This document shows positions 23,146 through 48,568 of a DNA stretch of 64,000 nt, one piece after another. The DNA is taken from the IMG/VR virus record IMGVR_UViG_3300046523_000117; one strand, written 5' to 3'. A program made the position numbers and the translations under genes. Position 1 is the stretch's first letter. Each line of letters opens with the position of its first letter. The stretch comes from a virus (Duplodnaviria; Heunggongvirae; Uroviricota; Caudoviricetes). The notes below the pieces were generated by a model. It was given only the letters and a program-made list of their open reading frames with translations. It had not been told where the DNA came from and did no database searches.

Positions 23146-23591
23146 AGTTCAATATCCGGTGTTTGTGGTAGATAGGCCCAACGTGGGTAACAGACCTTGT
23201 ACATATTCCAGTGAGTCAGGGAAATGATATCCCAACGCTTCTTGTCAACCACCCAGACAATGATGTTACCCCAAGCATCACATAGCTCAAATTCGGGTTG
23301 GTATTCACCGTCAGATGGATAGGTCGCTTGAAGCTTCGCAGCACGGTTCTTATCCATGCTCATTTTCTTCAATTTCAAGGTTCGGATTCGGTCGATGATC
23401 TTTTCGAATTCCATCGCCTTATCCTTCAACGCTTCCTGTTCCGGGGTTTCCGGTTGGTCGCAATCTGGGCAGTCGTCCAGACGATAAAGTGGGCGTTGAC
23501 ACCCGATACAAGGATGCATTTGATTTGCTGCCATGTTGATTCCTCCTTTCGATTTGAGAATTCTACCACGATTCAATTCTATGTCAAACAC
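23142..23591 (-). CDS. Zn-ribbon protein (149 aa)
   Basis: HPCIGCQRPLYRLDDCPDCD. Confidence 0.5.
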   Translation of the reverse strand: MFDIELNRGRILKSKGGINMAANQMHPCIGCQRPLYRLDDCPDCDQPETPEQEALKDKAMEFEKIIDRIRTLKLKKMSMDKNRAAKLQATYPSDGEYQPEFELCDAWGNIIVWVVDKKRWDIISLTHWNMYKVCYPRWAYLPQTPDIEL

Positions 23592-34956: not shown

Positions 34957-35560
34957 TCGGATCAGTGAGAACTAGTTGACCGGTGGGGCGAATCATCCAG
35001 TTTGACCCGTGACAATCCACTTTCGCATCCGGTAACCCAGCCATCCAAATCACGATATCTGCTAGGTTGTTTGTATTGTAGTTACGGTTCCCGCGCATGT
35101 CAAACTGATTCCGCAAAAAATCTGCAATTTTCTTTCGTTTACCATTCAGGGTTTTAAACTGATTGATAAACCATTGATTTCTACAGAGTTTTACGACATT
35201 CGACATTCCGACACTATGAACGATTTCGCTTTCATAGAGCCGTTCCATACAGGCTATTGCTCGACCATCATCCACAAACATATTATAAATTTTTGGCATC
35301 AATGGATTTGAGTCCATATGCCGGGTGACATGCTCTGCGTACTGAATCCAAGGGTCAGACCCTTTCCACGACAGTTTGAACACCCGCTCAGAATCGATTT
35401 GCCCAATCACCGACGAGTAAAACCCGGTTCCGTGATATTTCCATCCAACCGGCATCAAGCGTTGAAGCTCTAGGGTTTCGTGGAAGACGCGGGGAGCGTG
35501 TTGCATTGCTCCCTGCAAATCACCAGCAATCAGACAATCAATTAGTTTTGCGACATCCAT
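34949..35560 (-). CDS. atypical protein-kinase-like fold protein (203 aa)
   Basis: HGTGFYSSV Gly-loop-like, VFKLS Lys, DCHGSNWMI (DxHxxN catalytic-loop-like), LVLTDPIG (DFG-position); paralog of 35542..36375. Confidence 0.45.
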   Translation of the reverse strand: MDVAKLIDCLIAGDLQGAMQHAPRVFHETLELQRLMPVGWKYHGTGFYSSVIGQIDSERVFKLSWKGSDPWIQYAEHVTRHMDSNPLMPKIYNMFVDDGRAIACMERLYESEIVHSVGMSNVVKLCRNQWFINQFKTLNGKRKKIADFLRNQFDMRGNRNYNTNNLADIVIWMAGLPDAKVDCHGSNWMIRPTGQLVLTDPIG

Positions 35561-36375
35561 GAAAACTTAGTGCCTTGCTCCAGTTGCGTGTAGCCATTCA
35601 AAATGTCACAGATTGGGTCAGTCAGGACCGGGAAGCCATCGCGATGCATGACGTTGCTTGAGCTGATATCGTCACAGCCACGTACAGAATTTCGGTGGTC
35701 TTCGTAAACCCTAGCAGCAACAATTGCATCAATCGGACTGTGCTTAATGAACTGCCCGAACGTAAATTCGGCATTTTCCATGTAGCGGTCCACGTCGAAG
35801 TCTTCGAAAAAGGATTCGTCGGCCAGATCACCGAGCGAACCATCCTCAAAGGACAGGCCGACGCCAAGATGCAGATGCTCTACCACAGCGATGTACAGAT
35901 GTCCACGTTGTTCAATCGATTTGATGTTAGGGATATACGGGTTCCCTTGGTGCTGCGTGCAAGTCTTCATCCAACCAAACCCACCATCTACAGGCGAATA
36001 AAAGTTGTCCCGGCAGTTGACTTTCAACACCCACTCAGGGCCGAGGCTAAACACCTCTGCGAAAGATCCATTGCCGATGAAAATAAAGCACTTAGCAAGC
36101 ACTTCGGAGATAAATTCGAGGTCATACCCACTATCAGGTACGCCATCTACCGGAGTAAACTCACTGCCGAGTTTATCCTTGGTCGCATACTTGCCGAAGA
36201 TTTGAATCAAATTCTTCGGCAAGTTACGGATATCATCTTGTACGGCCTTGACATCAGCAACTGCTTGATGTACTAGATCGTCGTAGGACGGACCAATTTT
36301 AACTACACCACCTGCAAAGGAAATGCAAAAACTATCTGCACACCCCATATCTGCAACCGCTGCAACTGCGCCCAT
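35542..36375 (-). CDS. atypical protein-kinase-like fold protein (277 aa)
   Basis: IGNGSFAEVF glycine loop, WVLKV lysine, VMHRDGFPVLTDPI catalytic/DFG-like segment. Confidence 0.5.
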   Translation of the reverse strand: MGAVAAVADMGCADSFCISFAGGVVKIGPSYDDLVHQAVADVKAVQDDIRNLPKNLIQIFGKYATKDKLGSEFTPVDGVPDSGYDLEFISEVLAKCFIFIGNGSFAEVFSLGPEWVLKVNCRDNFYSPVDGGFGWMKTCTQHQGNPYIPNIKSIEQRGHLYIAVVEHLHLGVGLSFEDGSLGDLADESFFEDFDVDRYMENAEFTFGQFIKHSPIDAIVAARVYEDHRNSVRGCDDISSSNVMHRDGFPVLTDPICDILNGYTQLEQGTKFSWMSQN

Positions 36376-36402: not shown

Positions 36403-36603
36403 TTATGTTGGTTGTTTTTTGTGCAGCTTGTAATCTGCTGGGCAGTGTTTGTTCCAGATCGAAGCGTCCAGATCCAAAATTCCCTGTTGACGACAAAGTG
36501 TCTCGAACGATGTTCTCCCCGCGTGGTACACCTTGCTGTCATCGCTATATTGATAGAACCAATCGTGCTTTGCAAGCAGTTTTTCGTAATCAGACAGTAA
36601 CAT
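36403..36603 (-). CDS. hypothetical protein (66 aa)
   Basis: minus-strand ORF. Confidence 0.45.
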   Translation of the reverse strand: MLLSDYEKLLAKHDWFYQYSDDSKVYHAGRTSFETLCRQQGILDLDASIWNKHCPADYKLHKKQPT

Positions 36604-37072
36604 TCAGGGTAAATTCCGCTTTTTCAAGTTCGAGCCAAGCTTTGTGGTAGGTCTGGACGCGGGCGATGTCGCTAGGACGCACGCCCTTGAGCCGGGTGAT
36701 GCACGAATTGTGCTGTAGGTCACCTTTTTTGATCCGAATAATATCTACCCGACCTGCGGTAATCAGTCGCTGAATGAAATCCTCATAGGGTTCATCCTTA
36801 CGACGGGTCAACAGATCCAGACCAGATTCGAATTCTTCCAGAACGTCATATGCTCTGGCTTGGACCAACAAATGTTGAACCATTTCTGGGTGGTCTTCCT
36901 TGACATCATGACAAACCGCCAGTGCAAGGCTTACCGGGTTGGTAACGCCAAGTTTCCGTGCATTTTCCATGACGGTAATACAGTGCAAAATGTATGCCTT
37001 ACCGCCCTTGTCTACATCAAATTGATGTGCCATCGCAGCTACTGCAAAAACACCACCCAGAAGAGTTCCCAT
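36590..37072 (-). CDS. HD-domain hydrolase, RelA/SpoT-type (small alarmone hydrolase-like)
   Basis: YILHCITVMENARKLG...SLALAVCHDVKEDH matches the Rel/SpoT HD signature (HP...AALLHDVxED); 160 aa single domain. Confidence 0.6.
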   Translation of the reverse strand: MGTLLGGVFAVAAMAHQFDVDKGGKAYILHCITVMENARKLGVTNPVSLALAVCHDVKEDHPEMVQHLLVQARAYDVLEEFESGLDLLTRRKDEPYEDFIQRLITAGRVDIIRIKKGDLQHNSCITRLKGVRPSDIARVQTYHKAWLELEKAEFTLNVTV

Positions 37073-37791: not shown

Positions 37792-38094
37792 TTATCGATA
37801 GCTGGATTCGTAGGTGCCGGTAATGCCGATTTCGATTGTGAAATCATCACCCATATTGAATTCGTTGAATTCCCATCCACTTAGATACAGCAAATCCCGA
37901 CCGTTGGCTTCGAAGAAATCCCAACATGCGGGAGAAACCTTTACATCAAATTCCAGCTTTAGGGATTTGCGATTCAACCCAGTAACCGGGGCATTCACCA
38001 TCGCCTTTGCAATGGCTTCCCGAGCTTCGTTAAGGTGAATCTGTACACGCTGCGAAAAGATCGTAACCGGCGTTGGTACTGAAACCTGATTCAT
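37792..38094 (-). CDS. hypothetical protein (100 aa)
   Basis: minus-strand ORF. Confidence 0.45.
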   Translation of the reverse strand: MNQVSVPTPVTIFSQRVQIHLNEAREAIAKAMVNAPVTGLNRKSLKLEFDVKVSPACWDFFEANGRDLLYLSGWEFNEFNMGDDFTIEIGITGTYESSYR

Positions 38095-38629
38095 TCTGCA
38101 TCAATTCCTGTGCGTAGATTTTATAAAGGGCTTCCCGATCTTGGGGCTCCCAGAGATTGAACGTGGTGATTCTCAAGCCCTTGGCCAGATTGAACGCTGT
38201 AGCCGTACCACCCTTGACCGTTCGGCCTCTTGGTGGGGCACACGCGACAACCAAATCAGCCTTTGACTTTAGGTCGTCACCCAATACCTGAAACACGTTG
38301 CGGGTATGGGCGTTCTGTGCGAATTCATCAATTTCATCAAATCTTGGATGTATTCTTCTGGCGATGTCCTGAGCTTCAAACCACAAGTCCCCAAATTCGC
38401 TGGGGACTTTGAAACAATCAGCATTGGATCGACCATTGAAATTTGGTTCAGGTAGATAAATCGTTTTCCGATCCGATTCTACAAACCCCAATTCCCAAGC
38501 GCTATCCGCGCCTCTAGCACCACCAGACCGCAGATGCCAGCCTTTATTAGCGAGGACTGTAGCGAGGTTCTGACAAATCTTAAATTGGATTGCATCAATT
38601 TCCCTCGAACCGATTCCAGTAACGATCAA
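38030..38629 (-). CDS. DprA/Smf-like (SLOG superfamily) Rossmann-fold protein (199 aa)
   Basis: IVTGIGSREID ... LRSGGARGADSAWELG ... VVACAPPRGRTVKGGT parallels DprA GxGxxG / SGGARGID motifs; standalone domain. Confidence 0.5.
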   Translation of the reverse strand: MIVTGIGSREIDAIQFKICQNLATVLANKGWHLRSGGARGADSAWELGFVESDRKTIYLPEPNFNGRSNADCFKVPSEFGDLWFEAQDIARRIHPRFDEIDEFAQNAHTRNVFQVLGDDLKSKADLVVACAPPRGRTVKGGTATAFNLAKGLRITTFNLWEPQDREALYKIYAQELMQNESGFSTNAGYDLFAACTDSP

Positions 38630-38941: not shown

Positions 38942-40291
38942 TTATTGAGCTACTTTCATATCCAGCAGAAGGTCTTTTGCCGCTTTGGCACCTACCACGT
39001 TCATGAAATTGGCGGTTTCGGTTTGACGACCGTTATCACCAGCACCACCCATAACCAGTTGTGGAACCTTGGCTTTGGAGTATGCATCAGCCCAAACTTT
39101 TTCGATTTCGACACGGGCTTGCAGTTTCTGAGTCAAAGCACCGTCAGCGAGGATCACGGCTTTCTTGGCGTAGGCTTCCGCTTCGGCCTTTTCTTTCGTG
39201 GTCTTTGCATCAATTTGAGCTTGTTCAAACTTGATTTGAGAAGTTGCTTTCTCAATCGAAGCCTTTTCTTGCTCACGGGAAGCGTTGGTCAGAGCCAGTT
39301 GTTTTTCAGTTTCGGCGTTGGTGGTACGAATTACCTGATCTTTCATGGTCAGTTGACGTTGTGTTTCAACTTCCATTTCACCGTTTGCAGTAGCAAGTTT
39401 CTTTTGTTCGTCGGCAGTGATACGGCCTTGGCGAGCATAAGACAAATCAGCTTGCGATTGTTGAACTTTCTTCATGCGCTCTTTGAACTGAGGCGATGGA
39501 TCGATGTTCAAAATGTTCGCATCGGCAACAGTTACACCCAGTTTCGAGAACTGACGCTCCAGACGAATCGGCAGACCAGATTTTGCATCCAATACCTTTT
39601 CGGTAATTACAACGGTAGTTGTATCGGCACCGAATGAACCTTGTTCTTTACCATTCTGGGCAACAGCGCCTTGAGTGGCATCACGGGTATTCTTGACTTG
39701 CTTTTCAATTCGCTTGACGACATACGCACCGTCTGCAATTTGATCTTGGAAGCTCTGGCGGAATTCTGTTGCACCACCGTTGTAGTAATCGTCAGCCGAC
39801 ATCAACTGTGCAGTCGATTGCAGCGTGGATTTCATGACCGGCATGATCGATTGAAGAACAAAATTGTCGGGGCTGCGATAAGTACGAGCCAGTTGCAGGA
39901 ACTGTTCACCGTCCGGCAGTGCAACACGAACGTTCGCATCAACAGTAGCAACTACACCACCGAGGAAGGTCACCGGGAATGCTGGAATCAGAGAAGAACC
40001 CAATCCATCAAAATCACCCTTGGGTAATGTTGCGGTATCCAGTACAGATTGAACCGACATCTGGCGAGGCCACGGGGTTACCGTACCAAAACCGATGTAG
40101 GTGTAACCGGTGGTGCTTACAACCTTTTCACCTTGGGTTGGGAACTTGGTCATAACCTGAGTGATGTAACCGGCGCTGTTGTAATAGAACATGCTGCTAA
40201 ACATGAGCCAAACGAACAGAATTGCCGCTACAACGACCGCAGCCGTCCAACCGAGTTTCTTGTTTACTTCAAATCCGAGAATATTGCTCAC
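38942..40291 (-). CDS. SPFH/band-7 (stomatin/flotillin-like) membrane protein with long C-terminal coiled coil (449 aa)
   Basis: N-terminal TM (WTAAVVVAAILFVWLMF), SPFH-like core, Ala/Glu/Lys/Gln-rich flotillin-like tail. Confidence 0.55.
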   Translation of the reverse strand: MSNILGFEVNKKLGWTAAVVVAAILFVWLMFSSMFYYNSAGYITQVMTKFPTQGEKVVSTTGYTYIGFGTVTPWPRQMSVQSVLDTATLPKGDFDGLGSSLIPAFPVTFLGGVVATVDANVRVALPDGEQFLQLARTYRSPDNFVLQSIMPVMKSTLQSTAQLMSADDYYNGGATEFRQSFQDQIADGAYVVKRIEKQVKNTRDATQGAVAQNGKEQGSFGADTTTVVITEKVLDAKSGLPIRLERQFSKLGVTVADANILNIDPSPQFKERMKKVQQSQADLSYARQGRITADEQKKLATANGEMEVETQRQLTMKDQVIRTTNAETEKQLALTNASREQEKASIEKATSQIKFEQAQIDAKTTKEKAEAEAYAKKAVILADGALTQKLQARVEIEKVWADAYSKAKVPQLVMGGAGDNGRQTETANFMNVVGAKAAKDLLLDMKVAQ

Positions 40292-40440
40292 TAATCTTTC
40301 CTTTGTTTTGTTTGTGGTCCTAATGACCGGGTTACATGTACATCATACTACGTTTTGAATCTGTTTCAAACACTTTCGAAACTTTATTTTTTGTCGCGTT
40401 CTGTTTCGATGTCGCCATTCTATAGATTCAAAACACATTG

Positions 40441-41247
40441 TCAATGGATTCTGTAAAAACTTTTTTCGAGAAATCCGGTGTCGTCTTGATCTGGGTAGCC
40501 ATACGGGTTGCAGATAACGTTGGTGTCGCCAATCATGTAGTCATGAACGATATGGACGTGACCGTGGCACCAGAAATTGATGTTAGGTCGATCCAGAATG
40601 AATTCGCTCAAATCGCTGTGATAGCCGAAGTTCATGTAATATTCGTTGGCAAATTTCGGGTCGAGGCTTTTAGCACTTGGTGGGTGATGGGTCACGACCA
40701 CACAAGGTTCCATCGAATTGCCGACTTCTTCTGCGATGTATTCCAGATCCTTTTTATGCTCGGCTTGCCAGTGACGCGGCTTGAACTTCCCATAATGATC
40801 GAATTTTTCATCGTGGTAGTCGATTACCCGGAAATCGTTCATCCCGGTACTCAGGGTGAATTCCACCACCGGGTTACCGCGATCCATATTGGTCCAGAGC
40901 GTAGCCCCAACGAATCTAATTCCATCAATTACCACAGAGTCACGAATCAGGAAGTGGATGTTATCCAAGCCTTCTGGGTTCATTTTCTGGAAATTGAACA
41001 GGTTGGTAATCGGTTTGATTACGCTGCCGTAGTATTCGTGGTTCCCCGGAACGTACACAACCGCTTTGAAGCGGTTTCCGTATTCGGTCAACAGGGGTGC
41101 GACGTTCTCAGCACGTTTCAGGGTGTGAAAATCCCCGGCGATTACCAGAACACGTTCTTTGTCACCGTTGATATGCGGCAACGACGGCATTGCAAATGAG
41201 GCGTACCACTCAAGGTGGCAATCGCTAATAAGTCTGAATTCCATCAA
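40441..41247 (-). CDS. calcineurin-like metallophosphoesterase (class-III phosphodiesterase-like)
   Basis: GDFH ... GNHEYYG ... H ... GHVHIVHD motif set. Confidence 0.65.
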   Translation of the reverse strand: MMEFRLISDCHLEWYASFAMPSLPHINGDKERVLVIAGDFHTLKRAENVAPLLTEYGNRFKAVVYVPGNHEYYGSVIKPITNLFNFQKMNPEGLDNIHFLIRDSVVIDGIRFVGATLWTNMDRGNPVVEFTLSTGMNDFRVIDYHDEKFDHYGKFKPRHWQAEHKKDLEYIAEEVGNSMEPCVVVTHHPPSAKSLDPKFANEYYMNFGYHSDLSEFILDRPNINFWCHGHVHIVHDYMIGDTNVICNPYGYPDQDDTGFLEKSFYRIH

Positions 41248-41498
41248 TTACTCCACTTTACCCGGATGACGCAGGTATGAATTCTGTTTTTCTTGTCCAT
41301 ATATTCGATATGGGTCAGGATCGCTTTGTTGCCGACTCGATCTGTAAAGTTTTCTTGCCACTCTTTCACGACAGAACACCCATTCTGTTTGTAGAATGGG
41401 ATGTGTGGAATGACTTTGATTACCTTTCCGGCCATCAAGCCGTCAGGTTCACTGACATTTTTCAAGGGCTTTGTCATACAGATCACCGGCACAATCAA
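41244..41498 (-). CDS. hypothetical protein (84 aa)
   Basis: minus-strand ORF with a 4-nt overlap with the phosphoesterase gene. Confidence 0.45.
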   Translation of the reverse strand: MIVPVICMTKPLKNVSEPDGLMAGKVIKVIPHIPFYKQNGCSVVKEWQENFTDRVGNKAILTHIEYMDKKNRIHTCVIRVKWSN

Positions 41499-41649
41499 TC
41501 AAATCCTGTTGATGGTGGTCGTAGTGCAGATTCGAAGAAGCGTTATCGCCGGATCGGTCAGCAAGGCAGTAATTCAAAATGAATTGAAATTTACGTTCGT
41601 TGAATTCCGAGCTAGCTTGCGGGAGGCTATCGCCAATTTCGTCGTACAT
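41449..41649 (-). CDS. acidic hypothetical protein (66 aa)
   Basis: minus-strand ORF. Confidence 0.35.
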   Translation of the reverse strand: MYDEIGDSLPQASSEFNERKFQFILNYCLADRSGDNASSNLHYDHHQQDLIDCAGDLYDKALEKCQ

Positions 41650-41702
41650 TCTTAATTCCTCATTAGAAACAGAATCATATCACAGTTTCGATTCATTCTA
41701 AA

Positions 41703-41735
41703 CAAAAAAGGAGCCTTTCGGCTCCTTTTTATTTG
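41703..41735. terminator. rho-independent terminator
   Basis: CAAAAAAGGAGCCtttcGGCTCCTTTTTATTTG. Confidence 0.75.
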
Positions 41736-44904: not shown

Positions 44905-45948
44905 TTATGCGAAATCGAGGGTGAGCCATACCGGTTTGATTACCGATGCCGCGTGGGCACCGACTCGCTTACCAAGGACGTTCCATTCTTCGGTTTCTTG
45001 GGCCTTGTACCCATGATCTTTTTCGAAGTCTTCCAGAGCGTCACGGGTGAAATCCCCTTGCAGCCTACCGAACGACTTCTGGTCGTATACAGATTTTGAT
45101 ACAACCGCGTTAACCCGGTTCTCGCTCATGTAAGAGCAGACCTTATCCAGCAGAGCCTGTTGCTCGTCTGACAGGTTCACCGCCGACTTGATTTTTACTT
45201 CCTTGACCTTTTCACCGTACAGATGGTTCTTTTGTTTCAGAATCACCCGTTCTTCGCCCATATAGAAGTCTTCTTCATACCCGCAGATCACAAAACCTTC
45301 CGCGTAGTCAACCGGGGCTTTCTCACGATGTTCTGTTTCAAGACCAAATGCTTGTGGCACATGGGTATAGAACAACGGATCAATTTTGATCAGTTCTTCC
45401 AGCGTACCGATTTTGATGATCGGAGCATGACGCATACGGTCTTCGAACGACAAGCGAGCGATGAAGTTTGCATCAAATAGCAGGTCAACCAAATCCATGA
45501 ACGGAACGTAACGGCTGATACCGGTATCGAACGTCAGTTTCAGGTCGAATGCCATGAATTCGTTATCAGGGTGGTAGTTCACACCACCTTGAACTTTCTT
45601 GGCGGATTGAGCGCTAATCCCGTTATACGAACCACCGAAAATTTCACCGAACAGATTGATTTGAACCAGACCGGGGAACTCGCTCTTGACCAGACCAAAC
45701 AGAGCTTGGACAACTGGTTTGTATCGGGAGAAGAACCGGGAATGACCATAGAAGGTTTCAAGTTCATCGATCAAATCGTTACGGCTGGCAACCCGAATAG
45801 TAGTTCCGTCAGCAATCCACGAAAAGTTGGCACCGTGGATTTTCTCCACCGCCACCATCTGAGCATCCCCAACATGCATAGCGCATTTGTCGAGGAATCG
45901 TTGTTGGTAAGAGTTTTCGATGGAACTGTATTTAACAAATTCGCTCAC
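44905..45948 (-). CDS. rnlB: RNA ligase 2 (Rnl2, T4 gp24.1-like)
   Basis: The GTG start is preceded by AAAGGA. (V)SEFVKYSSIENSY...EKIHGANFSW aligns with the T4 Rnl2 MFKKYSSLENHY...EKIHGTNFSL KxHG ligase motif I. Confidence 0.8.
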   Translation of the reverse strand: MSEFVKYSSIENSYQQRFLDKCAMHVGDAQMVAVEKIHGANFSWIADGTTIRVASRNDLIDELETFYGHSRFFSRYKPVVQALFGLVKSEFPGLVQINLFGEIFGGSYNGISAQSAKKVQGGVNYHPDNEFMAFDLKLTFDTGISRYVPFMDLVDLLFDANFIARLSFEDRMRHAPIIKIGTLEELIKIDPLFYTHVPQAFGLETEHREKAPVDYAEGFVICGYEEDFYMGEERVILKQKNHLYGEKVKEVKIKSAVNLSDEQQALLDKVCSYMSENRVNAVVSKSVYDQKSFGRLQGDFTRDALEDFEKDHGYKAQETEEWNVLGKRVGAHAASVIKPVWLTLDFA

Positions 45949-45958
45949 AATAGATCCT

Positions 45959-46291
45959 TTATTTCTTTGGACGACCAGAATTAAGCCGGTCGTATAACAA
46001 TGTTTGTTGCAACTGGGTGATAGGCACATCCCCGTTTGCATGACCAAGTATTTTGTCCACGATGATATCTCGAAGACGTTTCATCGATGATTTGTTGAAC
46101 TTCCCTTCATCCGTATCAATACTGATGTTCACATATCCAATGTTGTTGGAATGCTTAAAAAATATCGTCAGGTAATCGTGGATAATGTCAAAGATTGTTT
46201 CTGGTGTTTCTGCGTAATACCGCGTAATTGTTGACGTAGTAACAGTCGGAGCGACTGTCACCACTTCAAATCCAACAATTAGGGCTCTCAC
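45959..46291 (-). CDS. hypothetical protein (110 aa)
   Basis: minus-strand ORF. Confidence 0.45.
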   Translation of the reverse strand: MRALIVGFEVVTVAPTVTTSTITRYYAETPETIFDIIHDYLTIFFKHSNNIGYVNISIDTDEGKFNKSSMKRLRDIIVDKILGHANGDVPITQLQQTLLYDRLNSGRPKK

Positions 46292-47434: not shown

Positions 47435-48568
47435 TTAGTCAGACGATGTTCCTTCAAATTCTTTCAAGATATAATTGGAATAGTTCTTTTGCATGAACTC
47501 TTTGGCCTGTGTTTCCCAATCACGCCCAACAAATCGGGACATTTGGATGTTAAACACCCAATCGGAATATTCGGCCTTCGCAGCAATGGCGTAGTCTTTT
47601 TGAGACAGATCCTTGTTACGGTCATGAAATGATTCTACCACAGAACAGGTATGGTTATAAACAGAACTGATAGAAATTTCGTAAGCATTGATTTTGTCCA
47701 ATACCGCTTGGTCGTCCGAGAACAAAACCTTGAGGTCGTCAATCTGTTCCGAAAGAATCAGTTCGATCAACGCACGGGTGTTCTGTACGTTGTCCTTGTT
47801 ACGGTGCAACGCCAGATACCACGGGCATTTCATTTTGAAGTAAACCCCATTTTTGGTCAGGGCTACAACGCCTTCGGTGCCGGTCAGGTTGTTGATTGCG
47901 GTTGCCAGCAAGCCGGTGTACTGGAATTCTTCAACCCAGATATCATCAACCCCGGCCAGACCCAAATCATCAATCAGGTCTTGTCCGTAAACAGTTCCGG
48001 TATGATTGTCAATGATGCTCAGGCCAATCAGTTTTGGTTGTTGATAACCGACCACGATACGGTTCCACGGCGCACACCATTCAAGATTAGTCGTGAAGTC
48101 GCGGGATGCGAGGAACCGCAGATCCGCCAGCAAGGCTGGTTGGGTCTTGAGGAACGCCATTGCATCATTACATTGAACCGATCCGGTAGAACCTTTCGAT
48201 TTCAGACGCAATTCGCCGTTGGTATGCAGGTAGGTAGACATCAACGAACCGTCTTCCTTGACCATGCACATTGCCAAATCATCCATCGGCAATTCCATCG
48301 TGAATGGATTTTCACCCAGATTGAAGAATTTCTTCGGAGGACGGCAAACCAAATCGTCAAAGTTGCCTTTGCGATCTACCAGAAACATGGTGCCACGACA
48401 TTCCAGCGCACCGGGTTTGCAGAAATCCGAATAGCTTGCCAGACGGTAGTTAAAGATCCGGTACATACGTTCCGGGTCGTCCGCTGGGAAGTCTTTGAAG
48501 AAGAATGCATCACCGGTCAGGGTCAATTGCATCAATTGATCGTAAAGCTGGAATGGGTTGGTGGACAT
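47435..48568 (-). CDS. rnlA: RNA ligase 1 (RnlA, T4 gene 63-like)
   Basis: 377 aa; YRIFNYRLASYSDF ... LECRGTMF ... KKFFNLGENPFTM ... VKEDGSLMSTYL match T4 Rnl1 blocks including the KxDG nucleotidyl-transfer motif. Confidence 0.85.
   Translation of the reverse strand: MSTNPFQLYDQLMQLTLTGDAFFFKDFPADDPERMYRIFNYRLASYSDFCKPGALECRGTMFLVDRKGNFDDLVCRPPKKFFNLGENPFTMELPMDDLAMCMVKEDGSLMSTYLHTNGELRLKSKGSTGSVQCNDAMAFLKTQPALLADLRFLASRDFTTNLEWCAPWNRIVVGYQQPKLIGLSIIDNHTGTVYGQDLIDDLGLAGVDDIWVEEFQYTGLLATAINNLTGTEGVVALTKNGVYFKMKCPWYLALHRNKDNVQNTRALIELILSEQIDDLKVLFSDDQAVLDKINAYEISISSVYNHTCSVVESFHDRNKDLSQKDYAIAAKAEYSDWVFNIQMSRFVGRDWETQAKEFMQKNYSNYILKEFEGTSSD

Follow-up and report, generated by a model that had tools for sequence, protein, structure and literature searches.

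A probable SPFH membrane scaffold and a metallophosphoesterase: neighbouring accessory genes in a T4-like Pseudomonas phage

The stretch of DNA considered here, 64,000 nucleotides in all and named the window in what follows, comes from a virus of the class Caudoviricetes (IMG/VR record IMGVR_UViG_3300046523_000117) and carries, next to one another on the minus strand, a gene for a membrane protein of the SPFH/Band-7 superfamily and a gene for a calcineurin-like metallophosphoesterase (MPE). Both are ordinary accessory genes, and they belong to phage families that are already annotated and uncharacterized, phrog_11908 for the former and phrog_1649 for the latter. The reading that we favour, with moderate confidence, is that a T4-like Pseudomonas phage has here two early genes, independent of one another and each of a known kind, the first coding for an SPFH scaffold and the second for a soluble phosphodiesterase. 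An earlier annotation by a model that saw the letters alone (hereafter the original prediction) had taken the phage to be T4-like and had placed neither gene in the T4 core, and on both points it was right: homologues were found of the gp43 polymerase, gp39/52 topoisomerase II, gp41 helicase, UvsX, the gp61 primase and the RNA ligases RnlA and Rnl2. The closest cultured relatives are the Pseudomonas phages Milchi and Astolliot, at ~60-64% protein identity, and no near-identical DNA was found among GenBank phages.

The membrane protein had been described as a chain of 449 residues with an N-terminal transmembrane (TM) helix, an SPFH core and an Ala/Glu/Lys/Gln-rich coiled-coil tail, and on this description the open reading frame (ORF), the Pfam Band_7 match and the AlphaFold model agree. 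Band_7 (PF01145) is matched over residues 105-292 with E 2.4e-11 and 44.4 bits, above the curated cut-off of 23.6, and phrog_11908 is matched with E 1e-64. The single hydrophobic segment (residues ~13-35, hydropathy 2.4) leads into an alpha/beta domain and from there into one very long helix, in which Ala, Glu, Lys and Gln make up 51% of the residues as against 23% in the SPFH domain. This succession of anchor, alpha/beta domain and long helix is that of the solved cage-forming proteins, and together with the Band_7 match it places the protein in the SPFH superfamily; by analogy, the 140-residue helix would presumably supply both wall and cap helices to an SPFH cage. Foldseek matched the model to HflK/C, prohibitin, erlin, flotillin, stomatin and QmcA with E between 1e-8 and 1e-4, the best match being the HflK/HflC structure 7vhq.

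Assignment to a subfamily is another matter, and the label of a flotillin- or YqiK-like protein did not survive. At E<=0.01 nothing besides Band_7 came out of Pfam, so no flotillin-type family, and NCBIfam gave no HflK, HflC, flotillin or other relevant family; a profile of the family, confronted with the Escherichia coli paralogues, put HflC on top, weakly, with 13 bits, and gave YqiK -26 bits. The protein is matched by no PADLOC model, and searches of PDB sequences, made with single sequences and with family profiles, returned no significant match either for it or for the MPE. With flotillins (E. coli YqiK, Bacillus FloT) it shares a comparable size and a long Ala/Glu-rich coiled coil, flotillin complexes being among its fold matches; it differs from them in having Band_7 alone in Pfam, in its negative YqiK profile score and in an N-terminal tail the charge of which is opposite to that of YqiK, so that its orientation is probably opposite as well. 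To HflK/HflC it is tied by the top fold match, by the best profile score and by an anchor with a positive cytoplasmic tail; yet it matches no equivalog model, that best score is a mere 13 bits, its long helix is much longer, and its gene stands alone in phages and hosts, with no hflK-hflC pair and no evidence for a link to FtsH. The other phage SPFH genes of phrog_11908 are likewise all stand-alone genes: those of Milchi and Astolliot are 64% identical to that of the window, while at 26-31% identity come those of the Sinorhizobium phage phiN3, the Alishewanella phage Slickus01, the Vibrio phages Thalassa and pVp-1 and the Aeromonas phage 1233; in all of these phages the neighbourhoods differ from that of the window. 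No conserved partner of the SPFH gene, of NfeD type or other, was found, as the other SPFH phages have no neighbour in common. Seven distant 'viral' SPFH contigs were considered as possible fragments of Pseudomonas chromosomes; with GC contents of 38-53% and no chromosomal synteny, they are not.

Members of the superfamily are found on both sides of the inner membrane: HflC and HflK, which build a cage around FtsH, are on the periplasmic side, whereas QmcA faces the cytoplasm and YqiK is expected to do the same. Across 51 SPFH homologues of the phage protein the N-terminal tail carries 2-5 Lys/Arg, with a total of 124 such residues before the TM helix and of 30 after it. Among the E. coli controls the tail of HflC is charged, and the tails of QmcA and YqiK carry 0 Lys/Arg. 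It is because the tail of the phage family resembles that of HflC, and not those of QmcA and YqiK, that we consider the SPFH domain to be probably periplasmic and the N-terminus cytoplasmic, in the manner of HflC.

The phage protein has a family among the bacteria. In a large protein collection 310 homologues were retrieved, and every named one comes from Pseudomonas, save a single one from Aquipseudomonas, with 43-59% identity at 93-100% coverage; the alignment holds 62 invariant columns, and the N-terminus aligns with 50 homologues, M1 being invariant. Homology over the full length and a shared architecture make the phage protein a member of the lpxH-adjacent SPFH family of Pseudomonas. Chromosomes of the P. 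aeruginosa-like and P. alcaligenes lineages have the order cysS-glnS-ppiB-lpxH-SPFH (loci L004-L008 and L111), where the SPFH orthologue lies ~100 bp downstream of lpxH and the 240-residue MPE encoded upstream of it is LpxH (TIGR01854, 1e-101); in other Pseudomonas lineages the gene is set in different chromosomal contexts. Going by the gene order of strain PAO1, we take the SPFH gene downstream of lpxH to be PA1791. This gene is listed as coding for a hypothetical or putative membrane protein (PMC5541441). Phage and chromosomal proteins have the same length, architecture, invariant core and charge pattern in the N-terminal tail; the phage copy differs by its phage-like composition, its own early-type promoter and its genomic context, and the host family is itself uncharacterized. 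In a neighbour-joining tree one clade gathers the core chromosomal orthologues, and a second mixes phage-sized contigs with some chromosomal copies; from this interleaving we may conclude that the gene passed between phage and host more than once. GC content at third codon positions is 46% in the window copy as against 77-91% in the host copies, and so phage-like a composition marks the gene as long established in the phage lineage. One chromosomal copy of the phage-related clade, in P. putida GCA_016337225 (L114, 11349-11534), sits amid hypothetical genes, with an Imm_superinfect gene and another MPE ~4 kb away.

The recent history of the gene can be followed by comparison with a close relative of the window, contig L016. 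The flanks of the two are mostly ~87-98% identical in nucleotides, with a few segments of 150 nucleotides at 75-82%, and the promoter spacer is 96.7% identical. Within the SPFH ORF (6001-7353 in the relative) the first 150 nucleotides are 88.7% identical and most of the remainder 65-83%, and identity is back to 95% right past the stop codon. Synonymous divergence (dS) is 0.84 for SPFH and 0.14-0.36 for seven flanking genes, while the ratio of non-synonymous to synonymous divergence (dN/dS) is 0.20 for SPFH and 0.025 for the MPE, which is among the most constrained genes of the region. The SPFH allele was replaced whole by a diverged one, through recombination in conserved flanks, and its divergence is not that of an accelerated protein. 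Positive selection between the relatives was considered as a cause and set aside, dS being raised 2.3-6-fold and dN/dS being 0.20. Replacement of the allele and a dN/dS of that value together mean that the SPFH gene is functional, is still under purifying selection and is exchanged as a cassette; judged by these two ratios and by the invariance of the catalytic residues, SPFH and MPE genes are both functional.

As for the MPE, the motif set announced by the original prediction is complete, namely D8-x-H10, G37-D38, G67-N-H-E70, H186 and G228-H-V-H231, and 49 homologues show little or no variation at these positions. The protein matches Pfam Metallophos (PF00149; E 2.3e-11, 44.9 bits against 21.5) and, over residues 1-256, phrog_1649 (E 7.6e-53), and its AlphaFold model, with a confidence (pLDDT) of 94, has nothing except MPEs among its top fold matches. 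The five metal-binding motifs and the sandwich fold are thus those of the superfamily, which the protein shares with CpdA/Icc, Rv0805 and GpdQ. The further step, to a 'CpdA-type' enzyme, could not be retained: the D-x-H / GD / GNH[ED] / H / GHxH set that had been cited for it defines the entire MPE superfamily (PMC12287305), an NCBIfam scan gave no relevant family, and the protein is no closer to CpdA/Rv0805 than to other subfamilies. Its best fold match is PptH of Mycobacterium tuberculosis (Rv2795c, PDB 6unc), and the similarity includes a region inserted into the MPE core, while other MPEs align over ~190-200 core residues only (scores: TT1561 17.9, MPPED2 17.6, aq_1956 17.4, Mre11 16.5, Rv0805 and GpdQ 14.5); it follows from this comparison that the label of 'class III phosphodiesterase' is not supported. 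The substrates of PptH are carrier proteins, from which it strips phosphopantetheine; the enzyme, paired with PptT, is described as occurring in mycobacteria only (PMC8557913). As our top structural neighbour, and as a binuclear metallophosphodiesterase like the predicted phage enzyme, it provides a lead and not an assignment, since the two proteins are 16% identical, with scores that are not significant (phmmer E 0.039, for the sole PDB match; family profile E 0.11), and there is no carrier-protein context at the phage locus. The adjacency of lpxH and SPFH in the hosts prompted us to consider the phage MPE as a homologue of LpxH, which it is not, as it fails to match the LpxH equivalog. A match of its N-terminal part to the PADLOC candidate PDC-S10 was judged to be generic MPE similarity.

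The MPE family is widespread. Proteins of equal length at 35-40% identity are found in phage 121Q (gp461), Cr30 (gp033) and Vibrio phage 2.275.O (gene 257), all in phrog_1649, the members of which are annotated variously as CpdA, Ser/Thr phosphatase or phosphoesterase. Its phages infect cyanobacteria, Vibrio, enterics, Caulobacter, Rhizobium and Pseudomonas, and elsewhere its neighbours include dCMP deaminase, MazG, ClpP and DNA or RNA ligase, with no partner conserved. At 80 viral MPE loci the commonest neighbour cluster occurred in 23, the clusters that could be annotated being MazG, dCMP deaminase, ClpP, DNA ligase, winged helix-turn-helix and WYL proteins; there being no dominant partner, these neighbourhoods give no clue to the function. 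The phage MPEs that have been characterized, by description the lambda phosphatase, Bxb1 gp47, D29 gp66 and the A10ZJ24 gp48 nuclease, have varied functions (PMC12287305).

That the two genes lie side by side had been taken to imply that they form a pair, and this we are led to doubt. Across the phage clade the genes run Rnl2, endolysin, Nmnat, Nampt, small ORFs, MPE, SPFH. By their domains, Nampt and the bifunctional Nmnat-Nudix protein are an NAD+ reconstitution pair of NARP2 type, a known phage counter-defence against NAD-depleting systems (the pathway is defined in 10.1101/2024.02.11.579819). Between MPE and SPFH there is no ORF in the window (40292-40440) and in L016, one of 76-89 residues in three further relatives (L013-L015), and three in Milchi. 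The SPFH gene has a separate promoter (Table 1): perfect TTGACA-N15-18-TAnAAT sites number only three in the 64 kb (23560-23587, 35075-35103 and 40417-40444), where 0.26 would be expected by chance, all are on the coding (minus) strand, and they are probably early promoters. Beyond the clade the genes do not occur together. The clade SPFH was found within 8 kb of the MPE at none of 80 other viral MPE loci, and the MPE is absent from 7 of the 11 viral SPFH loci, which share no other neighbour either; in numbers, the MPE has at least 583 IMG/VR loci and is in 195 GenBank phages, against 11 loci and 27 phages for SPFH. Co-occurrence and co-transcription across unrelated genomes, by which a module would be recognized, were therefore not observed. 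Having no hydrophobic segment and no signal peptide, the MPE should be cytoplasmic, unlike the bulk of the SPFH protein, which is probably periplasmic. The two genes hence appear to be neighbours through a synteny specific to their clade, with no shared function, although a functional link keeps some small probability. In phiN3 a metallophosphoesterase of 200 residues (L002, 2824-3426) is encoded three genes upstream of SPFH; it is no homologue of the window MPE (no match, E 1e-4), and this proximity looks like a second chance-like case.

We can therefore propose the following picture of what each gene would do, keeping the two apart. The SPFH protein is the phage copy of a Pseudomonas family, and its gene is transcribed from a strong early-type promoter of its own. 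A single N-terminal helix would serve as signal anchor in the inner membrane; as in HflC, the residues before it would stay cytoplasmic, and the SPFH domain and the long helix would face the periplasm. Like all solved SPFH proteins it may homo-oligomerize, into a large cup or cage by which a membrane patch is set apart. Its most likely role would be to supplement or replace a host scaffold of envelope homeostasis, the host orthologue, during infection, the effect being either a stabilization of the inner membrane or a control over what reaches a membrane protein or protease inside the enclosure, so that the envelope or the enclosed client is kept in a condition that favours infection. The MPE would be a soluble, cytoplasmic, binuclear Mn/Fe metallophosphodiesterase with a PptH-like fold, belonging to a family widespread in large virulent phages, and might hydrolyse a nucleotide-type or other small phosphodiester in the nucleotide or nucleic-acid metabolism of the phage.

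Several observations pull the other way. Confidence in the SPFH model is moderate (pLDDT 72, predicted template modelling score 0.45), and the orientation is read from a single feature, the charge bias; a plain count of Lys/Arg within 15 residues on either side of the helix fails on the HflK and HflC controls, and it is for this reason, the count in the N-terminal tail being the only one that classifies them, that the topology is graded as probable and no higher. A gene-sized swap of the SPFH allele would also fit a role in conflict rather than in housekeeping. Within the phage clade SPFH and MPE are near each other in every genome examined, and in some hosts LpxH, itself an MPE, is encoded directly upstream of the SPFH orthologue, mirroring the phage arrangement. 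The MPE lies just downstream of the NARP2 pair, in a region rich in domains of nucleotide-signalling type, which lends weak circumstantial support to counter-defence. In the literature we found no characterized phage SPFH protein, the papers that mention such proteins merely annotating them and one calling their purpose unclear, and no characterized member of phrog_1649.

Among the alternatives, that of the original prediction stands first, and we hold it to be unlikely: the MPE would destroy cAMP or the signals of CBASS, Pycsar or other immune systems, and the SPFH protein would remodel the inner membrane, in superinfection exclusion or in resistance to membrane-targeting effectors of abortive infection. 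The complete catalytic motifs and the very strong purifying selection on the MPE are as expected, the cyclic-nucleotide-hydrolysing Rv0805 and MPPED2 are among its fold matches, and D29 gp66 is a phage precedent that uses cAMP (PMC12287305). Its place in an early region, beside NARP2 and other nucleotide-related genes, speaks for the same view, as do an early-type promoter and allele replacement for SPFH, typical of conflict genes, and the Imm_superinfect gene near the P. putida copy. Against this, the MPE is kept across phages of diverse hosts amid genes of nucleotide metabolism, which fits a general metabolic role better than patchy defence, and the SPFH protein, unmatched in PADLOC, shows with its dN/dS no positive selection. 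To our knowledge, moreover, neither Acb1 nor Apyc1 is an MPE. These two are the known anti-CBASS and anti-Pycsar enzymes (PMC9117128).

Nucleic acids are another conceivable substrate, distinctly unlikely in our view: the MPE might heal RNA or DNA ends (2',3'-cyclic phosphate, 3'-phosphate) for the two phage RNA ligases, or it might be a nuclease and damage the DNA of the host, as is reported of the mycobacteriophage protein A10ZJ24 gp48. Ligases are indeed found near it, an RNA ligase adjoining the homologue in the Caulobacter phage Cr30 and a DNA ligase that in phage 121Q, with a DNA ligase cluster at 12 of the 80 viral MPE loci, and in the window Rnl2 and RnlA are encoded 4-7 kb away; if the phage has no polynucleotide kinase-phosphatase, an MPE could do the end healing. 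Fold searches and weak sequence similarities bring up Mre11/SbcD and Dbr1 too, and the mycobacteriophage nuclease A10ZJ24 gp48 is an MPE (PMC12287305); yet the MPEs of cluster A mycobacteriophages may be another subfamily, the best fold match, PptH, is no nuclease, and adjacency to a ligase, which most loci lack, may be due to the synteny of related phages, no Rnl2 homologue being present within 8 kb at the 80 viral MPE loci.

We find it improbable that the MPE is an accessory enzyme of NARP2, which might turn ADP-ribose derivatives or another breakdown product of NAD+ into usable precursors. Its unit directly follows Nampt and Nmnat-Nudix in every member of the phage clade, a phosphatase that extends a phage NAD pathway has a precedent, and calcineurin-type enzymes can cleave NAD+ (10.64898/2026.01.28.702374). 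Nampt or Nmnat is present within 8 kb at 3-4 of the 80 distant viral loci, which leaves ~95% of the sampled homologues with no NAD genes nearby, and in the window Nampt and the MPE unit have between them a strong terminator-like hairpin as well as a promoter-like site. The precedent itself, the accessory phosphatase Adpp, is a Macro-domain protein tied to NARP1 and not to NARP2 (10.64898/2026.01.28.702374); NARP2 uses phosphoribosyl pyrophosphate and needs no such step.

Very improbable is the proposal that the MPE is a PptH-like phosphopantetheinyl hydrolase, stripping 4'-phosphopantetheine from the holo-form of the host acyl carrier protein (ACP), halting fatty-acid and lipid A synthesis and perhaps acting with SPFH. 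PptH does act on carrier proteins of several species, P. aeruginosa included (PMC8557913), it is the one PDB sequence to be matched, albeit not significantly, and the lpxH-SPFH order of the hosts mirrors that of MPE and SPFH in the phage; set against this are the low identity and the poor profile score given above, the lack of any gene for a carrier protein or a phosphopantetheinyl transferase seen nearby, and the failure of the two families to co-occur beyond the clade, while in a superfamily whose substrates are so diverse a common fold says little about a common substrate. Least probable of all is the extension in which phrog_1649 would be the viral counterpart of PptH, stripping host ACP, in the phage clade of the window, beside a host-derived, periplasm-facing SPFH protein the orthologue of which neighbours LpxH, both acting to retune the cell envelope.

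If we return to the reading of two independent accessory genes, its interest comes from the fact that phage SPFH genes and the MPEs of phrog_1649 have been annotated repeatedly and never explained. What is added here is that phage and host have the SPFH gene in common, that its product has probably the orientation of HflC, that it is swapped as a cassette, that the two genes appear to be unlinked, and that the MPE has a PptH-like fold. This fold broadens the range of candidate substrates past cyclic nucleotides. Both genes are present in Milchi and Astolliot, which are in culture, so that viral use of a scaffold of membrane microdomains is directly testable. Were either gene to prove a factor of counter-defence or host takeover, the result for the MPE would extend to hundreds of large phages.

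All genes of the SPFH-MPE region are on the minus strand (Table 1), and transcription would run from Nmnat-Nudix to Nampt, then, past a terminator-like hairpin and a promoter-like site, through two small ORFs to the MPE, and after a 149-bp spacer to SPFH, a 90-residue ORF, a DprA-like/SLOG gene and further small genes. The order 'SPFH then MPE' given by the original prediction is consequently reversed in the sense of transcription, the MPE being upstream and SPFH second; the span that it proposed, 38942-41498, does contain both genes, and its far end takes in a separate small ORF which had not been described. The stop codon of this small ORF, which is confined to the phage clade of the window, shares 1 nucleotide with the MPE start. 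The mechanical MPE ORF, at 40441-41247, is one codon longer, with a TTG start. The predicted hairpin, with a folding energy of -17.6 kcal/mol (z -4.5, as stable in 0 of 200 shuffles), divides the NAD-salvage genes from the MPE unit; upstream of it the Nampt and Nmnat-Nudix ORFs overlap by 29 nucleotides.

Table 1. Predicted features of the SPFH-MPE region, in coordinates of the window
Feature	Coordinates	Strand	Basis and remarks
SPFH/Band-7 membrane protein gene, 449 aa	38942-40291	minus	GTG start, AAGGAAAG Shine-Dalgarno
C-terminal segment, residues 407-449: disordered linker and terminal helix 423-448	38945-39073	minus	AlphaFold model
140-residue single helix, residues 267-406	39074-39493	minus	AlphaFold model, composition
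SPFH alpha/beta domain, residues 35-266, with low-confidence insert 204-221	39494-40189	minus	Pfam, AlphaFold model
N-terminal TM helix, residues 11-34, preceded by Lys11-Lys12	40190-40261	minus	AlphaFold, hydropathy
Second promoter-like site, TTGAAA-16-TATGAT (10/12)	40342-40369	minus	Consensus match only
Sigma-70-like promoter, TTGACA-16-TAGAAT (11/12)	40417-40444	minus	-35 hexamer overlaps MPE stop codon
Calcineurin-like MPE, 267 aa from ATG at 41244	40441-41244	minus	ORF, Pfam, PHROG, motifs
Small ORF, phrog_18660, probably 77 aa from ATG at 41477	41244-41498	minus	Different frame from MPE; 77-aa gene called at matching position in L016
Small ORF, 66 aa, opening the MPE transcription unit	41449-41649	minus	66-aa gene called in L013 and L016
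Promoter-like site, TTTAGA-17-TATGAT, extended -10 TG	41674-41702	minus	Consensus match
Intrinsic-terminator-like hairpin and U-run	41700-41734	minus	Begins 8 nt past Nampt stop codon
Nampt, 505 aa	41742-43259	minus	Pfam NAPRTase/NAMPT_N; PHROGs
Bifunctional Nmnat-Nudix, 361 aa	43231-44316	minus	Pfam CTP_transf_like and NUDIX; PHROGs

Beyond SPFH, in the direction of transcription, the 90-residue ORF has no Pfam match, no PHROG match and no TM segment. The DprA-like/SLOG protein that comes after it (199 residues, 38030-38629, minus; phrog_768, 2.5e-54) is kept in the phage clade and is weakly similar to the PADLOC defence proteins PsyrA (E 5e-6) and ShosA (6e-3). Further on, a 160-residue HD-domain phosphohydrolase (36590-37072, minus; phrog_990) is weakly similar to SpoT/RelA at their hydrolase end (NF008303, E 1e-4) and may be a hydrolase of (p)ppGpp type. 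An ORF of 277 residues (35542-36375, minus) weakly matches phage Ser/Thr protein kinases (phrog_15752, 2.5e-6; phrog_2828), and at the homologous position of Milchi a protein kinase is annotated. On the other side of the NAD genes, also on the minus strand, the two RNA ligases are encoded at 44905-46047 (Rnl2 type, phrog_548) and at 47435-48568 (RnlA/gp63 type, phrog_562).

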